DNA of 64,000 nucleotides from a virus (Duplodnaviria; Heunggongvirae; Uroviricota; Caudoviricetes): the IMG/VR virus record IMGVR_UViG_2585427970_000001. The stretch is one strand, 5' to 3'. Made by a program: the position numbers and the translations under genes. The notes beneath the pieces are model-generated. The model worked only from the letters and a program-made list of their open reading frames with translations. It made no database searches and was not told where the DNA came from. Below, piece by piece: positions 13,155 through 29,461 of the stretch (position 1 is its first letter; every line of letters starts with the position of its first letter).

Positions 13155-13171
13155 ATTGCTCTAATGTATTG
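13155..13171 (+). promoter_or_regulatory. C1 operator-like site (14/17 to ATTGCTCTAATAAATTT) upstream of lpa
   Basis: ATTGCTCTAATGTATTG; the conserved ATTGCTCTAAT core is present. Confidence 0.45.
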
Positions 13172-13779: not shown

Positions 13780-14973
13780 GTGACCTGGGACGATCACAAG
13801 AAGAATTTTGCTCGCCTGGCGCGAGATGGTGGTTACACCATCGCACAGTATGCCGCCGAGTTTAATCTTAACCCTAATACCGCACGTCGTTATCTCCGTG
13901 CCTTCAAAGAAGACACCAGGACTGCGGACAGCCGCAAGCCAAATAAGCCAGTCAGGAAGCCACTAAAAAGCATGATCATTGATCACTCTAATGATCAACA
14001 TGCAGGTGATCATATTGCGGCTGAAATAGCGGAAAAACAGAGAGTTAATGCCGTTGTCAGTGCCGCAGTCGAGAATGCGAAGCGCCAAAATAAGCGCATA
14101 AATGATCGTTCAGATGATCATGACGTGATCACCCGCGCCCACCGGACCTTACGTGATCGCCTGGAACGCGACACCCTGGATGATGATGGTGAACGCTTTG
14201 AATTCGAAGCTGACGATTACCTGATAGATAACGTTGAAGCGCGGAAGGCCGCGCGCGCTATGTTGCGTCGGTCCGGGGCCGATGTTCTGGAAACCACTCT
14301 TCTTGAAAAGTCTCTTTCTCATCTCCTTATGCTGGAGAACGCCAGGGATACGTGTATTCGCCTGGTGCAGGAAATGCGCGATCAGCAAAAAAACGATGAT
14401 GAAGGTACTCCGCCTGAATACCGTATCGCGAGCATGCTAAACAGCTGTTCCGCGCAGATAAGCAGTCTGATCAACACCATTTACAGCATCCGGAATAACT
14501 ATCGAAAAGAAAGCCGGGAGGCGGAAAAGCACGCTTTATCTATGGGGCAAGCTGGCATTGTTAAGCTGGCATACGAACGAAAGCGTGAAAATAACTGGTC
14601 AGTGCTGGAAGCAGCTGAATTCATCGAGGCGCATGGCGGGAAAGTGCCGCCCCTGATGCTGGAGCAAATCAAAGCCGATCTGCGTGCTCCTAAGACCAAT
14701 ACCGATGATGAGGAAAGGCAAACTGCCGTCGGTGGCCCTTCTCTTGAAGATCTGGACAAAGTTGCGCGAGAACGGGCCGCCAACCGCCGCGCCGATGCCG
14801 CATTGTGGATTGAGCAACGTAGGGAAGAAATCGCCGATATCGTTGATACAGGCGGTTATGGAGATGTTGATACTGAAGGTGTATCAAACGAACCATGGCT
14901 GGAACAAGACCTGGACGAAGACGAGGAGGAAGACGAAGAAGTTACCCGCAAGCTATACGGGGATGATGATTAA
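13780..14973 (+). CDS. pacA: Terminase small/pac-recognition subunit PacA (GTG start)
   Basis: 397 aa; contains the pac-type clustered TGATCA/G hexamers in its 5' part; followed directly by pacB. Confidence 0.8.
13971..14160 (+). promoter_or_regulatory. P1-type pac site: two clusters of Dam-methylatable GATC hexamers (4 + 4) flanking the presumed cleavage region
   Basis: GATC at 13974, 13981, 13993, 14008 and at 14104, 14117, 14127, 14154, all in TGATCA/G-type context. Confidence 0.7.
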
Positions 14974-15358
14974 TGGCCAGAAGTTGCGTAACGGATCCAC
15001 GTTGGCGCGAGCTGGTGGCGCTATATCGTTATGACTGGATTGCGGCCGCTGATGTTTTGTTCGGCAAAACACCTACCTGGCAGCAGGATCTGATTATTGA
15101 GTCTGTGCAGGAACAGGGTAGCAAGACATCTGTTTCGTCTGGTCACGGTACCGGGAAATCAGACATGACTTCTATCATGATCATGTTGTTCATAATCATG
15201 TATCCCGGTGCCCGCGCCATTATCGTTGCGAACAAAATTCAGCAGGTAATGACCGGTATATTCAAGTACATCAAGATAAACTGGGCTACTGCCACCAGCC
15301 GTTTTCCATGGCTTGCTGATTATTTTGTTCTGACAGAAACCGCTTTCTATGAGGTTAC
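14973..15358 (+). pseudogene. pacB: pacB (terminase large subunit), 5' fragment interrupted by an IS element
   Basis: Reading frame ...ETAFYEVT runs straight into the IS left inverted repeat at 15359. Confidence 0.85.
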
Positions 15359-15412
15359 TGAACCGCCCCGGGAATCCTGGAGACTAAACTTCCTGAGAAA
15401 GAGGTAAACAGG

Positions 15413-15739
15413 ATGACTAAAAATACTCGTTTTTCCCCCGAAGTCCGTCAACGGGCAGTCCGTATGGTTCTGGAAAGTCAGAGCGAATATGACTCACAAT
15501 GGGCGACAATTTGTTCCATTGCTCCAAAGATTGGCTGTACGCCGGAGACTCTGCGTGTCTGGGTTCGCCAGCATGAGCGGGATACCGGGGGCGGTGATGG
15601 AGGGCTCACCACCGCTGAACGTCAGCGTCTGAAAGAGCTGGAACGTGAAAATCGTGAACTGCGCCGCAGTAACGATATCCTTCGCCAGGCTTCCGCTTAT
15701 TTTGCGAAGGCGGAGTTCGACCGCCTCTGGAAAAAGTGA
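15413..15739 (+). CDS. IS3-family transposase OrfA (HTH)
   Basis: 108 aa, [23 protein letters not shown]...; leucine-zipper-like C-terminus. Confidence 0.9.
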
Positions 15740-16626
15740 TGCCACTGCTGGATAAGCTGCGTAAGCTGTACGGGGTCGGACCGGTATGCAGTGAACTACA
15801 TATTGCCCCGTCAACGTATTACCACTGTCAGCAACAGCGACATCATCCGGATAAACGCAGTGCCCGTGCGCAGCGCGATGACTGGCTGAAGAAAGAGATA
15901 CAGCGCGTATACGATGAAAATCACAAGGTATACGGTGTGCGTAAAGTCTGGCGTCAGTTGTTACGGGAAGGTATCAGAGTGGCCAGATGCACTGTGGCAC
16001 GTCTCATGGCGGTTATGGGACTTGCCGGTGTTCTCCGGGGTAAAAAGGTCCGTACGACCATCAGCCGGAAAGCCGTTGCCGCAGGCGACCGCGTAAACCG
16101 TCAGTTCGTGGCAGAACGACCTGACCAGCTGTGGGTGGCTGATTTTACTTACGTCAGCACATGGCGGGGCTTCGTCTATGTGGCGTTCATCATTGATGTG
16201 TTTGCCGGATACATCGTGGGGTGGCGGGTCTCATCGTCCATGGAAACGACATTCGTGCTGGATGCACTGGAGCAGGCGTTATGGGCCCGTCGACCGTCCG
16301 GCACGGTCCATCACAGTGATAAAGGTTCTCAGTATGTATCGCTGGCCTACACACAGCGGCTTAAGGAAGCCGGATTACTGGCATCAACAGGAAGTACAGG
16401 CGACTCGTATGACAACGCGATGGCGGAGAGCATCAATGGTCTTTACAAAGCGGAGGTAATACACCGTAAGAGCTGGAAAAACCGTGCAGAAGTGGAACTG
16501 GCCACACTCACGTGGGTGGACTGGTATAACAATCGACGATTGCTGGAAAGGCTGGGCCATACTCCTCCGGCAGAAGCAGAAAAAGCTTATTATGCTTCCA
16601 TCGGAAACGATGATCTGGCAGCCTGA
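15736..16626 (+). CDS. IS3-family transposase OrfB (DDE catalytic domain), expressed by -1 frameshift as OrfAB
   Basis: 296 aa with an integrase-type core (...[10 protein letters not shown]...[15 protein letters not shown]...); overlaps orfA in the -1 frame. Confidence 0.9.
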
Positions 16627-16668
16627 GTTCACAGATAAAACACTCTCCAGGAAACCCGGGGCGGTTCA

Positions 16669-17770
16669 TACTGGTAAAGGTGTATGGACTGTAGTACCGA
16701 AGGGCTTTCGTCTGGGAAGTGAAGAAGCTCTCGCCGGTGAACACGCAGATCATCTTCTGTATATTATCGATGAAGCCTCCGGTGTCAGTGATAGAGCTTT
16801 CGGTATCATCACCGGTGCTCTTACCGGACAGGATAACCGCATCTTATTACTGTCACAGCCTACACGCCCAAGCGGCTATTTCTACGATACTCACCATAAA
16901 CTGGCCAAGCGTCCTGGTAACCCTGATGGCGTTTATACGGCGATCACGCTTAACAGTGAGGAATCACCGCTGGTAACGCCAGCATTTATCAAAATGAAGC
17001 TGGCGGAGTACGGCGGGCGCGATAACCCTATGTACATGATTAAGGTACGCGGCCTATTCCCTAAATCACAGGATGGCTTCCTTCTTGGACGTGATGAGGT
17101 TGAACGTGCAACGCGGCGGAAAGTCAAGATTGCCAAAGGATGGGGCTGGCTTGCATGTGTGGACGTTGCTGGTGGTACGGGAAGGGATAAGTCCGTTATC
17201 AATATCATGATGGTGTCCGGCCAGAGAAATAAACGCCGTGTAATCAACTATCGAATGCTGGAATACACAGACGTTACAGAAACGCAGCTTGCCGCCAAAA
17301 TTTTCGCAGAATGTAATCCTGAGCGATTCCCAAATATCACCATAGCGATAGACGGCGATGGGCTGGGTAAAGCAACAGCGGATCTGATGTACGAGTATTA
17401 TGGTATTACCGTACAGCGTATACGCTGGGGTAAAAAGATGCATAGCCGTGAAGATAAGAGCCTGTACTTTGATAAACGTGCTTATGCCAACGTTCAAGCC
17501 GCAGAGGCCGTAAAATCTGGTCGTATGAGACTGGATAAGGGTAATGAAACTATTGAGGAAGCGTCGAAAATCCCTGTAGGGATTAACTCCGCAGGTCAAT
17601 GGAAGGTGATGAGTAAGGAGGATATGAAGAAAAAACTCAACCTGCACTCACCAGACCATTGGGATACATATTGTTTCGCTATGCTGGCGGATTATGTTCC
17701 CCAGGACGAAGTGCTTAGCGTCGAAGACGAAGCGCAGGTTGATGAAGCTCTTGCATGGCTTAATGAATGA
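16669..17770 (+). pseudogene. pacB: pacB, 3' fragment
   Basis: After removing the IS and one TAC copy the frame reads through continuously (...FYEVT|[12 protein letters not shown]...); the two parts sum to about 496 aa. Confidence 0.85.
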
Positions 17771-17773
17771 ATA

Positions 17774-17790
17774 TTTGCTCTAATAAATTG
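17774..17790 (+). promoter_or_regulatory. C1 operator-like site (15/17) upstream of the icd-ant module
   Basis: TTTGCTCTAATAAATTG versus consensus ATTGCTCTAATAAATTT. Confidence 0.55.
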
Positions 17791-17799
17791 TGTTTTTTA

Positions 17800-17945
17800 A
17801 CTACCGATGTTACATTGAACCTGACCTCTTGCGCCTTGAGGCATTTTCGGTTTATGCTTATCAGGCACCTCAGTAAAACGGGTGCCGGGATTGGCCTCCC
17901 GCTTAAGTCTAAGGCGATACAGACGCCGCTCGCGTCTTTTTTTTG
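17800..17945 (+). ncRNA. Candidate small regulatory RNA (c4-like antisense RNA region) ending in a strong intrinsic terminator
   Basis: No protein-coding signal; terminator GACGC-CGCTC-GCGTC plus T8 at 17921-17945; contains GTCTAAGG, also present in the icd leader, and a stretch partly complementary to the icd RBS. Confidence 0.3.
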
Positions 17946-18109
17946 TATCGGCGTACACGCACACCTCTACAATGGTGGGCTGTATGGGGCTACCTTCGGG
18001 TAGGCTGGTTACCTTGGACGCCAGTAAGGCCAACTCCGTACAGTCCACCGCCAGCAAGATTGGTCTCTTCTGCGGTGGTTACATACCAACGTCTAAGGAG
18101 GCTGCCAAT

Positions 18110-18331
18110 ATGGCTACTATCCCTACCCCAACTCATCCTGAATTTATCTGGCGCTTTTACTCCTGCCAAAAACGTCACTATCACTTCGTTATTGCACCGA
18201 CAGAAGATGAGGCACGTTCTCAGCTTCCTGACGCCCCATGTATTTTCTCTGCCCGTTTTTCCACTGATTCACGCAATTCTCTCAGTTACTGGTGCCTCCC
18301 TGTTAACGCTTCTGCTCAGGAGGGACTATGA
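18110..18331 (+). CDS. Icd-like small protein (host cell-division inhibitor family)
   Basis: Strong SD (AAGGAGG) 7 nt upstream; motif FIWRF...VIAPTEDEARSQL...FSARF resembles Icd-like proteins; stop overlaps the ant start. Confidence 0.5.
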   Translation: MATIPTPTHPEFIWRFYSCQKRHYHFVIAPTEDEARSQLPDAPCIFSARFSTDSRNSLSYWCLPVNASAQEGL

Positions 18332-19446
18332 GAACATCGTTAGTTACCCGTGAAGAGATGATCGAGGCAATTGAACAGCACACTGCCTGTATCAGTACCA
18401 GGGATATACCAGGCGTTATTGCCAACTACTTCATGATCACCAAACAACTTTACCGGAGAAAGGACAAGAACGCGGTTCACCGTATCCTGTTGTCTGATAT
18501 CCGCGAATACCTGCTCGAACAGGGTCATCTGAATTACGCAACCGTCGCAGCCGAATCACGCAAGGAGGCACACAGAATGAAAGCAACTAACGTTAAATCA
18601 GAAAAAATTCATGCACCTTCAGTTCAGGAATCGGAGCTGGTGGTTGTTCAGAATCAGTCTGATGAAATTCCCGTTCTGGAATGGCAGGGAGTGCGTGTAG
18701 TGACAACCGAGACTCTTGCTAGAGGGTATGGGACAGAAACAATCCGTATTCGCCAAAATCATCATGAGAACAAAGTACGCTTTGTTGAAGGGAAGCACTT
18801 TTTCAAAGTTGAAGGAGAATCATTGCGCGAGTTGAAGCACAGAGTAGCTTTAAACTACTCTGTAAAAATTGCTCGCAATGTTCGCTCACTCACCCTCTGG
18901 ACAGAACGCGGCGCAGCCCGCCACGCTAAAATGCTCGAAACCGATCAGGCATGGGCATTCTTTGAAAAACTGGAAGACAGCTACTTCCGGCAAAAAGAAC
19001 AGCAACCGGTTGCAATCCCCCAGACGCTTCCAGAAGCTCTGCGCCTGGCTGCCGAACTGGCTGAACAAAAGCAGCTTCTGGAACAGAAAGCCCACCAGCT
19101 AAATCAGCAGCTGGTGGCCGCCGCTCCTAAAGTCGATTTTGCCGACCGGGTATCAGTAGCTAAAGGGATCCTGATTGGGAATTTTGCAAAGGTTGTTGGA
19201 CTTAAGCAAAACGCGCTGTTTGCCTGGTTACGGGAGAACGGCATCCTGATAGCGTCCGGTGGACGTAAAAATGTGCCGTTCCAGCAGTACATCAATGCGG
19301 GGTATTTCACGGTGAAAGAAGTGGTGCTGGATGATGAAGATGGCTACCAGATACGGTTGACGCCTCAATTAACGGGTAAAGGCCAGCAGTGGTTGACGCG
19401 TAAACTGCTCGATGCTGGCTTGTTAAAACCGGTGGCGGCTGAATAA
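18328..19446 (+). CDS. Antirepressor-like protein (ORF6N/KilA-N type domain plus C-terminal KilAC-type domain)
   Basis: 372 aa; ...IPVLEWQGVRVVTTETLARGYG...FFKVEGESLRELK... and C-terminal ...VAKGILIGNFAKVVGLKQNALFAWLRENGIL...; the true start could be the internal Met at 18577. Confidence 0.6.
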   Translation: MRTSLVTREEMIEAIEQHTACISTRDIPGVIANYFMITKQLYRRKDKNAVHRILLSDIREYLLEQGHLNYATVAAESRKEAHRMKATNVKSEKIHAPSVQESELVVVQNQSDEIPVLEWQGVRVVTTETLARGYGTETIRIRQNHHENKVRFVEGKHFFKVEGESLRELKHRVALNYSVKIARNVRSLTLWTERGAARHAKMLETDQAWAFFEKLEDSYFRQKEQQPVAIPQTLPEALRLAAELAEQKQLLEQKAHQLNQQLVAAAPKVDFADRVSVAKGILIGNFAKVVGLKQNALFAWLRENGILIASGGRKNVPFQQYINAGYFTVKEVVLDDEDGYQIRLTPQLTGKGQQWLTRKLLDAGLLKPVAAE

Positions 19447-19478
19447 TGGAAGAATGCCCGGTTGATGCCGGGCATAAT

Positions 19479-20330
19479 TTATTGCGCGCTTTCGGGGTTG
19501 TCGTTTACTGGCTGCCCCTTCTTGGTTTTACGGCTGCGCGTAACTGATGCGGCTGACTTAACCTTTTTCTCTTCGCGAGTGATGGCAATTTGTTTTTTTA
19601 CATTTTCAATATCTGCCAGGCGATATATTTTTGCTTGCGGCCAGCGGTCGCAGATGATCGGTTCTATGGAGTCATAAAGGCTAAATTTTGCTTTTTCGAA
19701 TTCACCGTTGATGATAATTCCATCACGGAGAGTTTCATCGCAGATAAACACGCCACACAGTGGCACATGGTAACTAACTGATTTACCATCATTGTAGTTA
19801 GGGCTACTGGAAATGTAGTGGACGCGCAGCATTGTTTCGCTAAAGCCGTGTACGCGCATACGGAATTTTTCATCCTCCGGGTACTGCCTCATTAGCTCTT
19901 TTGTTGCTTCCAGGTTCTCTATGTATTTCGCACTGTGCTCATTGATCCCCGCGCTTTTTTGGATGCGAATGTCCTTATCAATCAGATGAATAATGCGGCC
20001 AGCGGTCATGTTGACGCTGTTCACAGCTTCTGTCTGATAAGTTGTAACCTTGCGCACACCGCGAAGGATGTTAGGCACTGGATATAAAATAGTCTTTGGG
20101 ATATTGAGGTCTGGGTACTGTTCCAGTTCCCGCGCCATTAAAGTCCATTTATCAATTTCAGCCTGAATGCTGTCAGTTTCTTTGAACGGTAGAACGACAA
20201 CCGGGCGTACAGGACGACCGTCGCTGGCTGTATCAACGTGTTGGGCGCGTGCAACAGCTTTTTTTAGAAAGAGATCCCTGAAGCTGACGAACTCCTGGTA
20301 CAGTTGTTCGCCGTAGACATAATTTATCAT
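19479..20330 (-). CDS. c1: C1 repressor of lysis (primary immunity repressor)
   Basis: 283 aa, the length of P1 C1; N-terminus MINYVYGEQLYQEFVSFRDLFLKK...; flanked by multiple C1 operators, next to coi and loxP. Confidence 0.85.
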   Translation of the reverse strand: MINYVYGEQLYQEFVSFRDLFLKKAVARAQHVDTASDGRPVRPVVVLPFKETDSIQAEIDKWTLMARELEQYPDLNIPKTILYPVPNILRGVRKVTTYQTEAVNSVNMTAGRIIHLIDKDIRIQKSAGINEHSAKYIENLEATKELMRQYPEDEKFRMRVHGFSETMLRVHYISSSPNYNDGKSVSYHVPLCGVFICDETLRDGIIINGEFEKAKFSLYDSIEPIICDRWPQAKIYRLADIENVKKQIAITREEKKVKSAASVTRSRKTKKGQPVNDNPESAQ

Positions 20331-20440
20331 TGATCCTCCTCCAGAATTGACATGGTCAATAACGCCCGGCTGAGAAAACCGGTCATTACTGACCTATATT
20401 ATAGAGGGATCAAACAAAAATAATAGATTTATTAGTGCAT

Positions 20441-20650
20441 TTATTGTGAGTCTAACTGGTTAGTTGCCATGAGATATTCGATTGTGTCAGTGAGGTCATC
20501 CAGGTCGTCTTGGGTGATGCGGTACTCCTGATTGGATATCTTTGAGTAGTGTTCAGCAATGGCGCGGGCAGCGTCGGTTTCGGCAGGGTCTACAGATAAA
20601 GCGTTAGAGCAATGTCTAACGTCGTCGATGGTTGGTTGAATGAAAGCCAT
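20441..20650 (-). CDS. coi: Coi (C1 inactivator)
   Basis: 69-aa acidic protein immediately upstream of c1 on the same strand, with C1 operators upstream. Confidence 0.7.
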   Translation of the reverse strand: MAFIQPTIDDVRHCSNALSVDPAETDAARAIAEHYSKISNQEYRITQDDLDDLTDTIEYLMATNQLDSQ

Positions 20651-20888
20651 AATTATGCCTCACTGTATTGACAACACAGAGCCTGAAGCTCTGACCTACT
20701 GTTTCACCCATGATCCATGCTGGGGTAATCTAACAACATTGCGCTGTGTGTAAGATGAGCAATGCATAGCTGTAATGCCGTTGTATAAGGTTTCCCTGTT
20801 TGCTCATTTCCTTCTGAGCCGCTCTACAACGCTGAAGACACATTAAATAGTGAATCCAAAGTCGTATTACGTAACGGCGGCAAAACTA

Positions 20889-20905
20889 TAATTTATTAGA
20901 GCAAT
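20889..20905 (-). promoter_or_regulatory. C1 operator (16/17), Op99-type, upstream of coi-c1
   Basis: Reverse complement reads ATTGCTCTAATAAATTA. Confidence 0.7.
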
Positions 20906-20971
20906 TGTCAAACAACTATGAAAAACAATCCAGTTTTTAGCTGGTGGAGTGGGATTTTTCTCTCAAAATTT

Positions 20972-20988
20972 ATTGCTCTAATAATTCT
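20972..20988 (+). promoter_or_regulatory. C1 operator (15/17), Op99-type
   Basis: ATTGCTCTAATAATTCT. Confidence 0.65.
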
Positions 20989-21483: not shown

Positions 21484-22515
21484 ATGTCCAATTTACTGAC
21501 CGTACACCAAAATTTGCCTGCATTGCCGGTCGATGCAACGAGTGATGAGGTTCGCAAGAACCTGATGGACATGTTCAGGGATCGCCAGGCGTTTTCTGAG
21601 CATACCTGGAAAATGCTTCTGTCCGTTTGCCGGTCATGGGCGGCATGGTGCAAGTTGAATAACCGGAAATGGTTTCCCGCAGAACCTGAAGATGTTCGCG
21701 ATTATCTTCTATATCTTCAGGCGCGCGGTCTGGCAGTAAAAACTATCCAGCAACATTTGGGCCAGCTAAACATGCTTCATCGTCGGTCCGGGCTGCCGCG
21801 ACCAAGTGACAGCAATGCTGTTTCACTGGTTATGCGGCGGATCCGAAAAGAAAACGTTGATGCCGGTGAACGTGCAAAACAGGCACTAGCGTTCGAACGC
21901 ACTGATTTCGACCAGGTTCGTTCACTCATGGAAAATAGCGATCGCTGCCAGGATATACGTAATCTGGCATTTCTGGGGATTGCTTATAACACCCTGTTAC
22001 GTATAGCCGAAATTGCCAGGATCAGGGTTAAAGATATCTCACGTACTGACGGTGGGAGAATGTTAATCCATATTGGCAGAACGAAAACGCTGGTTAGCAC
22101 CGCAGGTGTAGAGAAGGCACTTAGCCTGGGGGTAACTAAACTGGTCGAGCGATGGATTTCTGTCTCTGGTGTGGCTGATGATCCGAATAACTACTTGTTT
22201 TGCCGGGTCAGAAAAAATGGTGTTGCCTCGCCATCACCCACCAGCCAGCTATCAACTCGCGCCCTGGAAGGGATTTTTGAAGCAACTCACCGATTGATTT
22301 ACGGGGCTAAGGATGACTCTGGCCAGAGGTACCTGGCCTGGTCTGGACACAGTGCCCGTGTCGGAGCCGCGCGAGATATGGCCCGTGCCGGAGTTTCAAT
22401 ACCGGAGATCATGCAAGCTGGTGGCTGGACCAACGTAAATATTGTCATGAACTATATCCGTAACCTGGATAGTGAAACAGGGGCAATGGTGCGCCTGCTG
22501 GAAGATGGCGATTAG
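21484..22515 (+). CDS. cre: Cre tyrosine recombinase
   Basis: 343 aa, MSNLLTVHQNLPALPVDATSDEVRKNLMDMFRDRQAFSEHTWKMLLSVCRSWAAWCKLNNRKWFPAEPEDVRDYLLYLQARGLAVKTIQQHLGQLNMLHRRSGLPRPSDSNAVSLVMRRIRKENVDAGERAKQALAFERTDFDQVRSLMENSDRCQDIRNLAFLGIAYNTLLRIAEIARIRVKDISRTDGGRMLIHIGRTKTLVSTAGVEKALSLGVTKLVERWISVSGVADDPNNYLFCRVRKNGVASPSPTSQLSTRALEGIFEATHRLIYGAKDDSGQRYLAWSGHSARVGAARDMARAGVSIPEIMQAGGWTNVNIVMNYIRNLDSETGAMVRLLEDGD matches Cre as remembered over the whole length apart from the short ...GVASPSPTSQ... stretch (remembered as ...GVAAPSATSQ...). Confidence 0.98.
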   Translation: MSNLLTVHQNLPALPVDATSDEVRKNLMDMFRDRQAFSEHTWKMLLSVCRSWAAWCKLNNRKWFPAEPEDVRDYLLYLQARGLAVKTIQQHLGQLNMLHRRSGLPRPSDSNAVSLVMRRIRKENVDAGERAKQALAFERTDFDQVRSLMENSDRCQDIRNLAFLGIAYNTLLRIAEIARIRVKDISRTDGGRMLIHIGRTKTLVSTAGVEKALSLGVTKLVERWISVSGVADDPNNYLFCRVRKNGVASPSPTSQLSTRALEGIFEATHRLIYGAKDDSGQRYLAWSGHSARVGAARDMARAGVSIPEIMQAGGWTNVNIVMNYIRNLDSETGAMVRLLEDGD

Positions 22516-24590: not shown

Positions 24591-27503
24591 TTATGGTAAT
24601 GCGCTCTTGATTAACTGATAAATATCATCATTAGCAAACTGCGTTCTGAATTCAACTTTAACAGACTGACTTATTTGATTGAAAAGCGCTTGGGCATGTT
24701 CAATTTTCCGTTTTTCTTCAAGCCGTAAACTATCCTTACTATCTACGTTTTTTGTTTCAATGATAAAATTAAGATAATCACCTTCCGCTGTTTTTACAAC
24801 ATAAGCAAAATCGGGTGAGTAAGTGTATCCACCAGCTACCGGGATCTTAATAGAATTCTTCGGTATCTTTGAAAAAACAACAACAGACTGGATCTCTCTA
24901 TCTGTTATATTACGCCTTTCAAGCTCTGAATCATAAAAAACTTCTTCAAAAAGATAAGTATCTAATGGTGCTTTTGCATTATCCTGCAATACACCAAGAT
25001 CACTTGATAATACCTCGCCTAGAGGATTACCATCAGCATTTGTGAACTTTGTAGGATGAATTGAACCCGAAATCAAATTATATCCGAGGCTGAATTTATT
25101 AAACGAATTGTTCAACAAATACTTACTAAAACCAGATTTAATTTTTCTGATTGTTTGAATATTAAGGTATTCAGTGATATTAATAGTGTCTTTTATATCA
25201 CAAAAAACTTTATGTAAAGTACCGTGTTTAACAAAAATAGTCTGTGATAAGTTATCGAGAAACTCTCGATAGCTCATTGTGTTCAGCTTAGCAAAGTCAT
25301 CGTCATCACTGACAATGCTTTTCGACATTGCCATATCATTGTGGATGTAAATTTTATCAATGCGAGTATGAACGCCTGATTTGGTAAATCGTTCTGTTTC
25401 TTCGAGCATGAATGACTTGAAAATGGATAAAAATTCACTTTCACTGTTTATTTTGTACTCAATCACCGCTTTTTGATTGATCAAATCCCATAGTTCTTTC
25501 AGCTCACTGAACTTACCAACACGCATTTTAGTGCGTCTTTTTCCATCAGTAGCTTTTTTGATTTTACCAGGTTTCACTCCTATAGGGAATGCTGCTGGAT
25601 ATTTGGATTTTAAGCGGCTATAGGCATCTGAATCTTTGAAATTATCATTGTCATCAATGATTTCATCATTGAAAAGTTCATTCATTAGTGCTCTGGATGA
25701 AAGCTCAGGATACTGAGCCATGATTTGTTCCTTAAGCTCTTGAGTAAACTTACTTGGAACCCTTTCTTTGAAAGAACTCTCGTTGACCTCTTTAACAAGT
25801 GAGTCAACAAAATCCTTTTCTGTAAAATCAACATAATATTTAAGGGTAAAATTGCGGTCTTTCACTCGACACATGTATTCATTCACAGGAAGACGCAAAC
25901 CGCGCCCTACCTCTTGAAGCTTAGATGTGGTACTACCGCTCGAACGGAGCTTACAGATCTGAAAAACATTAGGATTATCCCACCCCTCACGCAACGTCCA
26001 TTTTGAGAAAATAAACCGACGGGGATTATCTAAAGACAGCAAAAGCTCTTTGTCATGAAGGATTTCGTTGATTTCCTGCTCGATTTTATCATCCTTATCA
26101 CTGTTATCTTTTGAGAAATAACCACCATGAACGGAAGATATATTTGTGACTGTTTTTTCAAGATAGTTTTTATAAAACGCATCTTGCTCTGTTTTTAACA
26201 GTTCATTAGCTTCTGCCAGAACGTATTCTTCGAATTTGGTCTTCAGGCTTCCGGAAATATCATTACCGTCACGATAGCCTTCAATATCGTCAATAAAGAA
26301 AAGAGTAAGAGGCTTTATGCGTGGCCTTTGTGTCAGAAGTTCTTTTTCTAACTTAAAGTGTTCTTTGACAGCCTTACGCATCATGTTATCAGCGAGTGTC
26401 TGATCGTAAGAATAGGGATTTATTGAGCTACCAATCTTCAACTCAATACCATTACTCAACACTGCTGTGCTCTTGTTTAAAGCATCAAGAGTTAAATCAT
26501 GGATCGCACTATGCGTCTTAGACAGTGATTCACCTTTAGCTAACTTAAACGATTTTTTGTTGTTGTTTTCATTCAGTTCAAATGTAGCTTCCTTTCCGTC
26601 AGATTTGACGAATTTGAGGTTTGCGTTACCATCGCCGACTATATCCTCAATATATGCATCAATACCTTTAACGAGATCATCGTTAAATGCGTCCACGGCT
26701 GTAAGACGATAAACCAGGTTCTTATAGCCTTCGCTAAAGGTTGCGCCATAGCGGATAATATATTGTGCGTTAAATTTCTCTATGTTTTCCCATGTTTTTT
26801 TACCAGTAGGAAATCTATGTGGTTCGTCAATGATGATAAATGGTTTTACAGCTCTGAGCGCGTCAACTGGAGTATTAAACTGATTATCAAGCAAGCCAGT
26901 ATCGTAAGTATCCGTTAAAGACTTAGAGTTGATCATTCCTGAGTTAATAACAAGAACGTGTATATATTTTTTATTGAAGTTACTTGCTTCAACAAAATCA
27001 TGTATAGCCTGAGGCATATACGATTTTGTATTTTTGCCAGCGTTTTTCTGACTTTCAACAACGTAAGTTCTCAGCTCACGCTTGTAATCATCCCGGAAGT
27101 GTTCTTTTAAAGCATCACTTTTTAAAAAGTTAACGGTTCCGGCCTTGATAGATAGAGTCGGAACAATGATGATAAACTTGTTAATACCAAATGATTTATT
27201 CAGGTCAAAAATAGTTTTGATATAGGTGTACGTCTTGCCTGTACCTGTCTCCATAGAAACATCAATGATGTTGCTTTTAGCATTGTGATTATCTTTTGAG
27301 TGCGCAATACCATTGAACGCCTGAACATTTTTTATATTGTTGTAGTATTGTTGTTCAGACAGCTTCAGTTCAGGATTAGCTAAAAGGCGAACAGCAACAT
27401 TATCCGTCAGGTGAGGTGTTGCGGAAACAAAAACATTCATCACCGCATCGACTCCTGCTTTCTGATGCGGCAAGTTCTTTTCGAGAGTGAACCCTTTTGA
27501 CAT
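24591..27503 (-). CDS. res: Type III restriction endonuclease, Res subunit (helicase-nuclease)
   Basis: 970 aa; Walker A-like ETGTGKTYT and DEPH box (IIIDEPHRF); start overlaps the mod stop. Confidence 0.9.
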   Translation of the reverse strand: MSKGFTLEKNLPHQKAGVDAVMNVFVSATPHLTDNVAVRLLANPELKLSEQQYYNNIKNVQAFNGIAHSKDNHNAKSNIIDVSMETGTGKTYTYIKTIFDLNKSFGINKFIIIVPTLSIKAGTVNFLKSDALKEHFRDDYKRELRTYVVESQKNAGKNTKSYMPQAIHDFVEASNFNKKYIHVLVINSGMINSKSLTDTYDTGLLDNQFNTPVDALRAVKPFIIIDEPHRFPTGKKTWENIEKFNAQYIIRYGATFSEGYKNLVYRLTAVDAFNDDLVKGIDAYIEDIVGDGNANLKFVKSDGKEATFELNENNNKKSFKLAKGESLSKTHSAIHDLTLDALNKSTAVLSNGIELKIGSSINPYSYDQTLADNMMRKAVKEHFKLEKELLTQRPRIKPLTLFFIDDIEGYRDGNDISGSLKTKFEEYVLAEANELLKTEQDAFYKNYLEKTVTNISSVHGGYFSKDNSDKDDKIEQEINEILHDKELLLSLDNPRRFIFSKWTLREGWDNPNVFQICKLRSSGSTTSKLQEVGRGLRLPVNEYMCRVKDRNFTLKYYVDFTEKDFVDSLVKEVNESSFKERVPSKFTQELKEQIMAQYPELSSRALMNELFNDEIIDDNDNFKDSDAYSRLKSKYPAAFPIGVKPGKIKKATDGKRRTKMRVGKFSELKELWDLINQKAVIEYKINSESEFLSIFKSFMLEETERFTKSGVHTRIDKIYIHNDMAMSKSIVSDDDDFAKLNTMSYREFLDNLSQTIFVKHGTLHKVFCDIKDTINITEYLNIQTIRKIKSGFSKYLLNNSFNKFSLGYNLISGSIHPTKFTNADGNPLGEVLSSDLGVLQDNAKAPLDTYLFEEVFYDSELERRNITDREIQSVVVFSKIPKNSIKIPVAGGYTYSPDFAYVVKTAEGDYLNFIIETKNVDSKDSLRLEEKRKIEHAQALFNQISQSVKVEFRTQFANDDIYQLIKSALP

Positions 27504-27505
27504 GA

Positions 27506-29461
27506 TTAGTTCCTCACCACCAAATCTAACTCAATAGATTTTTTATTAGCATAACTTTTTAGTGCTTCATTGAGTTCCATTTGCTTTGCGCTTTCAAAGT
27601 TGCTGCCATAAAACACGACTTTGTTTGGAGCAAAGTCTTTGTCTGAATCCACCTTTTGAAGTAACGCTTTCAATGCTTCGCTAGTAAAATTAGGTGCAAT
27701 CAAATACAGACGACCATCGCACAAATGTGCTTTGTAGCCACCAAGATCAACATCTTCAATAGGTGTTGTTAGCAAACTGCCATCATACAGGCACCATGTA
27801 GTTAATAGAGTGTCATATTGTTCAGGCGTCAAGACAACATCATCAAAGAATGTATGATTAGACAGTGTAAGTTCTGATTCGTCTTTAGCGCGAAAATCTG
27901 GCATTAGTTGATATACCTTAAACCCCTGATCCCTATTTTTTTTAGACGCCCTAATTAAACGCTCCTTTGTTAAGTCAAATATTGTATTATAGCCATGCTT
28001 CATGGCATCAGATTTATCTTTTGTAGGTTCATCTAGTTGAACTGTAATAAACTGATACGACGTTTTATTTTTGTTATTCAAATTAAAAACTGTATGCGCT
28101 GTAGTTCCTGACCCAGCAAAAAAATCCAAAACAATACCCTCTCCATCACATGCAAAAGATATTAAATCTTCTACTAATTTTATAGTTTTAGCATTTGTGA
28201 ATGGTTGAGTCATTTCTGGGAACAGCTCTTTAAGTTCGTTCGTTGCAACACGCCCATCAAGATGGATAACGGAGCTTAATTTCTGTTTGTAATCCTTAGC
28301 ATAAACTTTTAGTTCTATAATTTTGTTTTCATCATCACCGAAGATGATCTTTTCTTCAGACAGAAGCCTATCCATTGTATCTAATGGAAAACGATATCCC
28401 ATAAGAGGTTGTTTGCATGGCTTCTTAGTTTTTGGATGTATAATATCATATCTGTAACCCTCTTTTCCGGGGTTGTGGACGCTCTGACTACCAGTATAGA
28501 TGCCGTCTTTGTCTATATATTTGTATCGGTCAAGAGGCCATAATTCAGTTCTGTGTTCACGAAACCACTGGGTATATTTTTCCTGAAGTTCATTGCCAGT
28601 GTATTTTGATGCAAATTCTTCACCTATGTTGACAAGTAAGTTTTTTACATCGGAGATATTAGATTTCCACTCACTTATAAGCTGCTCTTTGTTTTTTGTG
28701 TAAACAATAATATATTCATGCTCTACAGCGATATTTGAAGGGTTGTTATCAGTTGCATTTTTCCATACTAGATCCCCAACATGGTTTTGCTCACCAAAGA
28801 TCTCGTCGCAAACTAGTTTTAATTGACTGAACTCATTATGGTCAATAGAAATAAAAATAGTCCCGTCTTCTCTCATTAATTCACGAGCAATATAAAGGCG
28901 TGGGTAAATGAATGTCAGCCATGCACTATGACTGCTTGACCCCTTGGTGGTAAATTCTAATATGCGTTTAGCCTCATCGAGGTCGATGCCTGCTAGTTCA
29001 GAAAGCTGCTCAGGTGTAAATTTGCGATCATCATTATAAACGAACCCATCCTTACCTGTATTGTATGGTGGGTCAATGTAAATCATCTTCACCTTTTCAG
29101 CGTAAGCATTAACCATATGCTTCAATACTTCGAGATTATCCCCTTTGATTAACAGGTGTTGACTGTTCTTGTTCTCTTCTTGTTGGTTATGAGTTTTATC
29201 TTCTGCCAACAACGTTTTCGGTGGTAGATTGGCCAACAAACGGGCATAAGATTTACCCAGCCAGTTCAAGCTGTATGATTCTTTAGAGAGTTCAACTTCC
29301 GATGCCCTAATAATCTCAAGCAATTTTTCTTGAATGAAGGCTCCGTTTTTATCAAAACACTGAGGGAAATTAGCTTTCAACACAGCCAGTTGCTTGCTGT
29401 TAGCCGTTTCTACTTCGGAAAAAATCGTTTCTTTTTTCATATCCATTTTAAACCAGATCAT
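27506..29461 (-). CDS. mod: Type III N6-adenine DNA methyltransferase, Mod subunit
   Basis: 651-aa ORF; motif IV DPPY (...IYIDPPYN...) precedes motif I FxGxG (...DFFAGSGTT...), the beta-class order; variable central region; alternative starts 5 or 7 codons in. Confidence 0.9.
   Translation of the reverse strand: MIWFKMDMKKETIFSEVETANSKQLAVLKANFPQCFDKNGAFIQEKLLEIIRASEVELSKESYSLNWLGKSYARLLANLPPKTLLAEDKTHNQQEENKNSQHLLIKGDNLEVLKHMVNAYAEKVKMIYIDPPYNTGKDGFVYNDDRKFTPEQLSELAGIDLDEAKRILEFTTKGSSSHSAWLTFIYPRLYIARELMREDGTIFISIDHNEFSQLKLVCDEIFGEQNHVGDLVWKNATDNNPSNIAVEHEYIIVYTKNKEQLISEWKSNISDVKNLLVNIGEEFASKYTGNELQEKYTQWFREHRTELWPLDRYKYIDKDGIYTGSQSVHNPGKEGYRYDIIHPKTKKPCKQPLMGYRFPLDTMDRLLSEEKIIFGDDENKIIELKVYAKDYKQKLSSVIHLDGRVATNELKELFPEMTQPFTNAKTIKLVEDLISFACDGEGIVLDFFAGSGTTAHTVFNLNNKNKTSYQFITVQLDEPTKDKSDAMKHGYNTIFDLTKERLIRASKKNRDQGFKVYQLMPDFRAKDESELTLSNHTFFDDVVLTPEQYDTLLTTWCLYDGSLLTTPIEDVDLGGYKAHLCDGRLYLIAPNFTSEALKALLQKVDSDKDFAPNKVVFYGSNFESAKQMELNEALKSYANKKSIELDLVVRN

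Follow-up and report, generated by a model that had tools for sequence, protein, structure and literature searches.

A probable additional immI-type antirepressor operon between pacB and c1 of a P1-like phage-plasmid

The window analysed here is a stretch of 64,000 nucleotides (nt) from the IMG/VR record IMGVR_UViG_2585427970_000001 and belongs to a P1-like (Punavirus) phage-plasmid. In P1 the stop codon of pacB and the stop codon of the repressor gene c1 are separated by only 24 bp; the window has about 1.7 kb there instead. This insert carries an operator for the C1 repressor, two RNA genes, an icd-like gene and an antirepressor gene of the ant1 type, and c1 and coi follow it directly on the minus strand. 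These are the parts of the immI region, which in P1 is located in the sim to kilA-repL slot, about 45 kb from immC. The module of the window adjoins immC at the pacB-c1 junction. The original prediction, made from the letters of the stretch without database searches, had pointed out both the distance in P1 and the neighborhood of the module to c1 and coi, and both statements are correct. We regard the insert as probably an intact, additional operon of the immI type, with a second, independent specificity beside the canonical one.

The operator TTTGCTCTAATAAATTG begins 3 nt past the stop codon of pacB. It had been predicted from the letters, and the site proved to be present, with two mismatches to the consensus and in alignment with the annotated Oc4 of P1. 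The window has seven sites with three or fewer mismatches to the consensus, where shuffled sequences lead one to expect 0.4. The other six, at 13155, 20425, 20889, 20972, 37022 and 42208, have one to three mismatches, and those at 20425–20988 match the c1/coi operator cluster of P1.

Two candidate promoters follow the operator. The distal one has a −35 element, TTGTGT (17788–93), lying partly within the operator, an overlap also present in P2c4/P51a of P1, and an extended −10 element, TGtTACATT (17808–16). The proximal one (TTGCGC, 18 nt, TATGCT) would put the start of transcription near nt 17865, the first base of the first RNA. Its layout resembles that of P1c4/P51b and that of TTGACT-17-TATATT, a strong promoter in front of isrK in phages carrying Shiga toxin (Stx) genes.

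The RNA genes were found by a scan of the whole window with Rfam at the gathering threshold. The first RNA of the insert is a member of the IsrK family of small RNAs (sRNAs) and the equivalent of the c4-a1b1 RNA (RF01394, 60 bits against a gathering score of 50). It shows three hairpins plus a terminator, as expected of IsrK. A non-coding stretch ending in a strong terminator had been noticed before, and its end indeed consists of a hairpin and a T-run. The original prediction had also proposed a candidate small RNA at 17800–17945 as part of its immI-like module. An RNA does lie there; it is of the IsrK family, and the C4 RNA, located further downstream, had been missed.

The c4-a1b1 model (RF03163) matches below its threshold at 17852–17905, with 20.5 bits against a gathering score of 46.7 (E = 0.005). 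The architecture of c4-a1b1, as described in the Weinberg 2010 supplement, is nevertheless present: two hairpins, a1 in the loop of the second and b1 directly 3′ of it. The same two hairpins (17852–17942 in the window) are thus matched by RF01394, which is in no clan, and by RF03163, of clan CL00128, and the two families are apparently models of a single element. In 10 of 10 further loci scanned, isrK is located directly 5′ of C4.

The second RNA starts 26 nt 3′ of the first and matches the C4 family over its full length (RF01695, 75.9 bits against a gathering score of 45). Its predicted fold has the C4 shape, with a minimum free energy (MFE) of −41.6 kcal/mol and z = −3.5, and leaves two elements unpaired: b′, CCTTGGAC, in the loop of hairpin 2, and a′, AGGCCAA, in a single-stranded segment. 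The complements of a′ and b′ each occur twice, upstream as a1 (TTGGCCT) and b1 (GTCTAAGG) in the leader RNA and downstream as a2 (TTGGTCT) and b2 (GTCTAAGG) in the icd leader, where b2 overlaps the Shine-Dalgarno (SD) sequence of icd. According to its annotation, immI of P1 is built in the same way; b′ in the C4 loop and a′ in the single strand have their partners both in a2/b2, at the ribosome-binding site (RBS) of icd, and in a1/b1 further upstream. In the window, a′/a2 and b′/b2 form seven and eight pairs with one G-U each, and the duplex between C4 and the icd leader has a predicted energy of −22.2 kcal/mol.

The icd leader also has a structure of its own. When the free leader is folded to its MFE structure, the GGAGG of the SD is base-paired in every leader examined (window 18056–18125 and 132 related ones), and its partner is often CCUC(C) just 3′ of a2.

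The pairing elements were compared across related loci, 16 from phage and plasmid records and 120 from IMG/VR; 132 loci with 61 distinct leaders were analysed. They display nine a-types and six b-types in many combinations. The three-way match, of a1 and a2 with a′ and of b1 and b2 with b′, is kept in essentially all 132 loci. Mean cognate pairing is 6.9 of 7 for a and 8 of 8 for b, and only 0.7–1% of the non-cognate combinations match fully. The three-way co-variation is strong evidence that C4 has genuine partners in both the leader RNA and the icd leader.

The protein-coding part of the module was also foreseen in outline. The open reading frame (ORF) of 73 residues had been called Icd-like with a strong SD, and it matches NCBIfam NF033153 (phage_ICD_like, 49.8 bits), is 80% identical to P1 Icd and is preceded by AAGGAGG (18095–18101). 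The ORF of 372 residues had been called an antirepressor-like protein with ORF6N and KilAC domains. Pfam profiles match both domains, with 109.9 bits for the C-terminal KilAC (PF03374), and the protein belongs over residues 1–372 to phrog_63 (443.7 bits), the family that also contains P1 Ant1. The icd stop codon overlaps the ant start codon in ATGA (18328–31). An internal, ant2-like start with its own SD is located at codon 84; its offset of 249 nt is that of P1. Among the copies at this locus both genes are under purifying selection, with a ratio of non-synonymous to synonymous substitution rates (dN/dS) of 0.02–0.15 for icd and 0.05–0.45 for ant.

Table 1. Features of the insert between pacB and c1 and of the neighboring genes, in window coordinates.
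Feature	Position	Strand	Remarks
C1 repressor operator (Op51/Oc4-like)	17774–17790	+	TTTGCTCTAATAAATTG; 2 mismatches to consensus; aligns with annotated P1 Oc4
Distal promoter candidate (P51a/P2c4-like)	17788–17816	+	inferred from alignment with annotated P1 P2c4
Proximal promoter candidate (P51b/PisrK-like)	17829–17858	+	TTGCGC, 18 nt, TATGCT; inferred
IsrK-family leader sRNA (c4-a1b1 equivalent)	17865–17942	+	Rfam RF01394
a1 (TTGGCCT)	17891–97	+	loop of leader-RNA hairpin 2
b1 (GTCTAAGG)	17907–14	+	immediately 3′ of leader-RNA hairpin 2
Intrinsic terminator of the IsrK-type RNA	17921–17944	+	hairpin plus T-run
C4-family antisense RNA	17968–18055	+	Rfam RF01695, full length
b′ (CCTTGGAC)	18012–19	+	loop of C4 hairpin 2
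a′ (AGGCCAA)	18027–33	+	single-stranded in predicted C4 fold
icd leader with C4 target sites	18060–18101	+	
a2 (TTGGTCT)	18060–66	+	complement of a′
b2 (GTCTAAGG)	18091–98	+	complement of b′; overlaps icd SD
icd-like gene, 73 aa	18110–18331	+	NCBIfam NF033153
ant1-like antirepressor gene, 372 aa	18328–19446	+	Pfam ORF6N plus ANT/KilAC
Internal ant2-like start	SD 18562–68, ATG 18577	+	codon 84
Hairpin between convergent ant and c1	19454–19475		9-bp stem, 6 GC pairs; possible bidirectional terminator
c1 repressor gene	19479–20330	−	NCBIfam NF041318 equivalog, 612 bits
coi	20441–20650	−	
cre	21484–22515		
pacA	13780–14973		
pacB	14973–17770		split by IS3-family element
IS3-family element, orfA	15413–15739		
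IS3-family element, orfB	15736–16626		
IS3-family element, ALIL frameshift pseudoknot	15694–15810		

Taken together, the module most probably works like immI of P1, with an IsrK-type anti-antisense leader, and provides a second immunity specificity. Transcription would start from the C1-controlled promoter and probably also from the proximal one, and part of it would end at the terminator of the leader RNA. Transcripts that read through would hold the C4-type RNA, presumably excised as in P1, by RNase P. Its exposed a′ and b′ would then pair with a2 and b2 on the mRNA of its own operon and mask the icd RBS, so that neither Icd nor antirepressor would be made in the lysogen, since ant is translationally coupled to icd through the ATGA overlap. 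The a1 and b1 of the leader RNA could compete for C4, as was found for IsrK of Gifsy-1, and switch the operon on. Where a cognate C4 is lacking, for example on entry into a cell that carries a relative of another specificity, Ant1/Ant2 would be made and would presumably inactivate C1. The module has its parts intact and is very likely functional.

The likeness to immI of P1 and P7 extends over the whole operon. The order Oc4-P51-a1b1-c4-icd-ant1/2 is collinear, the operator and promoter are homologous, b′ lies in a C4 hairpin loop and a′ in a single strand, a2/b2 lie over the icd SD, and the ATGA coupling and the ant2 start at codon 84 are shared. The module differs from immI of P1 in its location outside the sim-kilA region and in its a/b sequences, which are TTGGCCT/GTCTAAGG against TTGACAG/GTTAGTG in P1. 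It also differs from immI of P1 and P7 in the leader, which is IsrK-type and matches the Rfam isrK model more strongly than the c4-a1b1 model.

That leader points to another source. The isrK-C4 segment (17866–18115) is about 79% identical in nucleotides to the leaders of about 170 Stx-converting and other lambdoid phages, which have the same pair of RNAs and the same SD and start context. Unlike the window, these phages have no C1 operator and no icd; a Rha-family antirepressor gene (Phage_pRha), not Ant/KilAC, follows directly downstream. In two of them, Ss-VASD (locus L005, 3524–3607) and TL-2011c (locus L007, 3523–3606), sRNA-Xcc1 (RF02221, 79.6 bits) is located just 3′ of the Rha gene; this RNA is not present in the window. 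Ant is composite as well. It is 56% identical to P1 Ant1 overall, about 66% over the N-terminal 83 residues and about 93% over the C-terminal 140 or so, as judged by eye; the middle third has been replaced, with ORF6N in the window and no Pfam domain in P1 Ant1. By sequence comparison the module is thus a mosaic, as the original prediction had suggested, with P1-like operator/promoter region, icd and ant ends, a leader like that of Stx phages and an ORF6N middle in Ant.

The exchanged middle third raises the question of what Ant acts on. It might inactivate the repressors of other resident prophages, like AnrP of Gifsy-1, or act as an ORF6N DNA-binding regulator, like Roi, so that the module would serve warfare between elements or manipulation of the host. 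Some relatives are in fact annotated as Roi DNA-binding protein, and in Stx phages the genes under the same leader encode antirepressors of the unrelated Rha type. The N-terminus specific to Ant1 and the C-terminal part are nevertheless common to Ant and P1 Ant1, the nested ant2 start is kept, and a C1 operator stands at the head of the operon. Moreover, plasmid pWP5-S18-ESBL-08_2 has an immI with isrK-type leader and ORF6N-type Ant at the canonical position. A target other than C1 is therefore unlikely, and we take C1 as the probable target. The pWP5-S18-ESBL-08_2 plasmid also makes exchange between the two positions likely.

The relationship of the module to the canonical immI can be judged from relatives. 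The insertion is 98.6% identical to that of phage vB_EcoM-673R5 and 93% identical to that of RCS47. These two and JL22, that is, three of three sequenced phages with the module, carry it between pacB and c1 plus a canonical c4-icd-ant1/2. The closest plasmid, CP099053.1, whose leader is identical to that of the window, has three modules, one between pacB and c1, one next to mat and one at the canonical position. The mat-proximal module is not found in the window, which has two large minus-strand ORFs there (24591–29461). The module of the window type thus stands beside a canonical copy in relatives, and these genomes point to an added copy and not a rearrangement; the rearranged immunity region that had been suggested is not supported.

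The specificities of such coexisting modules differ. Predicted energies of cognate C4/leader duplexes are −20 to −22 kcal/mol, compared with −10.6 and −6.6 kcal/mol between the module of the window and the canonical immI of 673R5, and −5.7 to −12.3 kcal/mol between modules of one genome. The heteroimmune pair P1/P7, used as a benchmark, gives −9.3 and −14.0 kcal/mol, so that the cross-pairs within a genome are comparable or weaker. Cross-module pairing is also weak among the three modules of CP099053.1 (L138, 44076–45660, and L139, 33123–34638), whose b-sites are mutually non-cognate. Because its a/b sequences are unlike those of the canonical immI, the module would add an independent immunity specificity and not replace the first.

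A simple relocation, in which the module is the sole immI of this element and has left the sim/kilA region for the pacB-c1 junction, would account for the single C4 RNA of the window. The window ends near P1 coordinate 42,972, roughly 5 kb short of the canonical immI position, and Venturini 2019 describes the loss of immI from some P1-like plasmids. The retention of canonical immI in all three phages, the three modules of CP099053.1 and the presence of further matching places in the same record for 12 of the 13 full-module plasmids listed make a relocation very improbable. The notion that the insertion is passive cargo or a decaying duplicate, a recombination relic without present function, hardly deserves credence, for although pYLMB30b has only a short annotated ant fragment, the ant ORF of 673R5 is annotated as truncated and pacB of the window is disrupted by an insertion sequence (IS), both ORFs of the window are intact with dN/dS of 0.02–0.45 at the locus, the RNA complementarities are maintained across many specificity changes and the module occurs in 270 plasmid records.

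Several points weigh against an intact second immI-type operon. The IsrK-like fold of the leader is no better than that of shuffled sequences (z = −0.7). No promoter at the 5′ end of the module came out of a strict sigma-70 consensus scan, which is why both candidate promoters were placed by alignment with P1 promoters and Stx-phage leaders. The specificity type of the window includes G-U wobbles in a2 and in b1/b2. As the predicted fold of the free icd leader already occludes the SD without C4, C4 may have a less simple role than masking. The ORF6N middle of Ant, unlike that of P1, means that C1 may not be the target. The phage may be defective in view of the IS in pacB, and the module may then have no current role. 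Finally, the canonical immI position of this element lies beyond the end of the window.

The proposed operation of the leader can be compared with that of Gifsy-1. There, part of the transcripts from the isrK promoter terminate as IsrK and part run on to form an antirepressor mRNA, itself translationally silent (Hershko-Shalev 2016, PMC4825925). IsrK supplied in trans raises antirepressor translation more than 100-fold, and the pairing was defined by the mutations G28A and G31A in IsrK and C162U and C159U downstream, with G28/C162 and G31/C159 as compensatory pairs (PMC4825925). A stable RNA of about 80 nt, STnc1160, is processed from the read-through transcript (PMC4825925). The Gifsy-1 arrangement isrK-orf45(STnc1160)-anrP resembles that of the window in having an IsrK-family sRNA with terminator, a processed RNA and then an antirepressor gene. 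It differs in having no icd and no C1 operator, and its antirepressor acts on a lambdoid repressor. The authors of PMC4825925 take orf45 as a coding sequence and compare the system with P4, not with P1.

When the published numbers are mapped onto a related IMG/VR locus, the spacing of G28/G31 and C159/C162 would fit a helix between a1 (UUGGCGU) and a′ (ACGCCAA). On the same mapping, the start codons of orf45, 12 nt apart, would correspond to ATGgtgggctgtATG in the 5′ stem of C4 (17972–86 in the window). The same ATG-N9-ATG starts the Gifsy-1 'orf45' and the 'ash family protein' ORFs that the PGAP annotation places over C4 in relatives, and in the window an ATG in this stem opens a stop-free frame that runs in frame into icd (17972–18331). 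The 'orf45' and 'ash family' ORFs look like RNA genes annotated as proteins. A minus-strand ORF of the window at 17797–18057, as well as the 'ash family' and 'hypothetical' ORFs over the RNAs of relatives, were judged to be spurious overlaps of RNA genes.

The authors of PMC4825925 liken IsrK/STnc1160 to SeqA/CI of P4. P4 immunity (CI RNA, seqA/seqC) shares with the window a processed antisense RNA with complementary sites on both sides; unlike the window, it involves no antirepressor or icd, and CI acts via premature transcription termination of the replication genes (PMC4825925). Competition of a1b1 with a2b2 goes back to Citron and Schuster, as quoted in the Weinberg 2010 supplement, and the co-occurrence of isrK and c4 is remarked on in the APSE study. 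We therefore dropped the idea that IsrK as the a1b1 decoy of the C4 RNA is new, since these three precedents exist.

The insertion as such has also been recorded. This very gene order in P1-family references had been named beforehand as a finding that would speak against the original prediction, and it does occur there: RCS47 annotates ant between pacB and c1, the full module occurs in 270 of 816 plasmid records that match a junction-spanning query (most of the others match the pacB and c1 flanks only), and Venturini 2019 describes 'two short hypothetical orfs and ... ant ... inserted ... between pacB and c1'. That paper also mentions extra icd-ant homologues elsewhere in pSvP1. RCS47, pTZ20_1P and other P1-like plasmids have the same pacB-ant-c1 insertion as the window, although the specificity type of RCS47 is a different one, TTGAGAC/GTCAAAGG.

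The two RNAs, icd as such and the operator are unannotated in these records and in Venturini 2019, and the reference records of RCS47, JL22 and vB_EcoM-673R5 have no annotation of the RNA genes. Several plasmid records enter the C4 RNA as an 'ash family' ORF; elsewhere the RNAs sit under ORFs labeled 'hypothetical protein'. The module is common in P1-like phage-plasmids, has been recorded before and belongs to a well-known kind of system. Beyond these sources, the present analysis identifies the two RNAs and the operator and sets out the specificity relations.

The flanks of the insert have features of their own. An IS3-family element at 15359–16673 divides the large terminase gene pacB, and the element with the split gene is probably unable to package DNA. 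No PLSDB plasmid has this IS at the same site of pacB (best coverage 92%). On the other side, only 32 bp separate the convergent ant and c1 genes, with a lone hairpin between them and weak T-runs on either side. Transcription from a derepressed module that passes this hairpin could, speculatively, enter c1 in the antisense direction.

No new kind of system is revealed by the finding. In E. coli and Salmonella, resistance genes are widely carried on P1-like phage-plasmids, and immunity decides whether two of these coexist or one displaces the other. About a third of the matching plasmid records have the additional antirepressor module, whose RNA specificity is its own. A wider view, which we offer tentatively, is that a natural P1-like phage-plasmid may have as many as three RNA-programmed antirepressor switches that are orthogonal to one another, each made of an a1b1/IsrK decoy, a C4 RNA and a2b2, and all wired to one C1. 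These would form a combinatorial heteroimmunity code, of which at least nine a-types by six b-types have been seen, and a resident would need every cognate C4 to stay immune. Since the module beside c1 is convergent with it, the module could in addition interfere with c1 transcription once derepressed, and IsrK, c4-a1b1 and P4 SeqA would make up one anti-antisense family. If the extra module works as proposed, immunity in these elements would be multi-locus and combinatorial, unlike the simple alternative of P1 or P7 given in textbooks.

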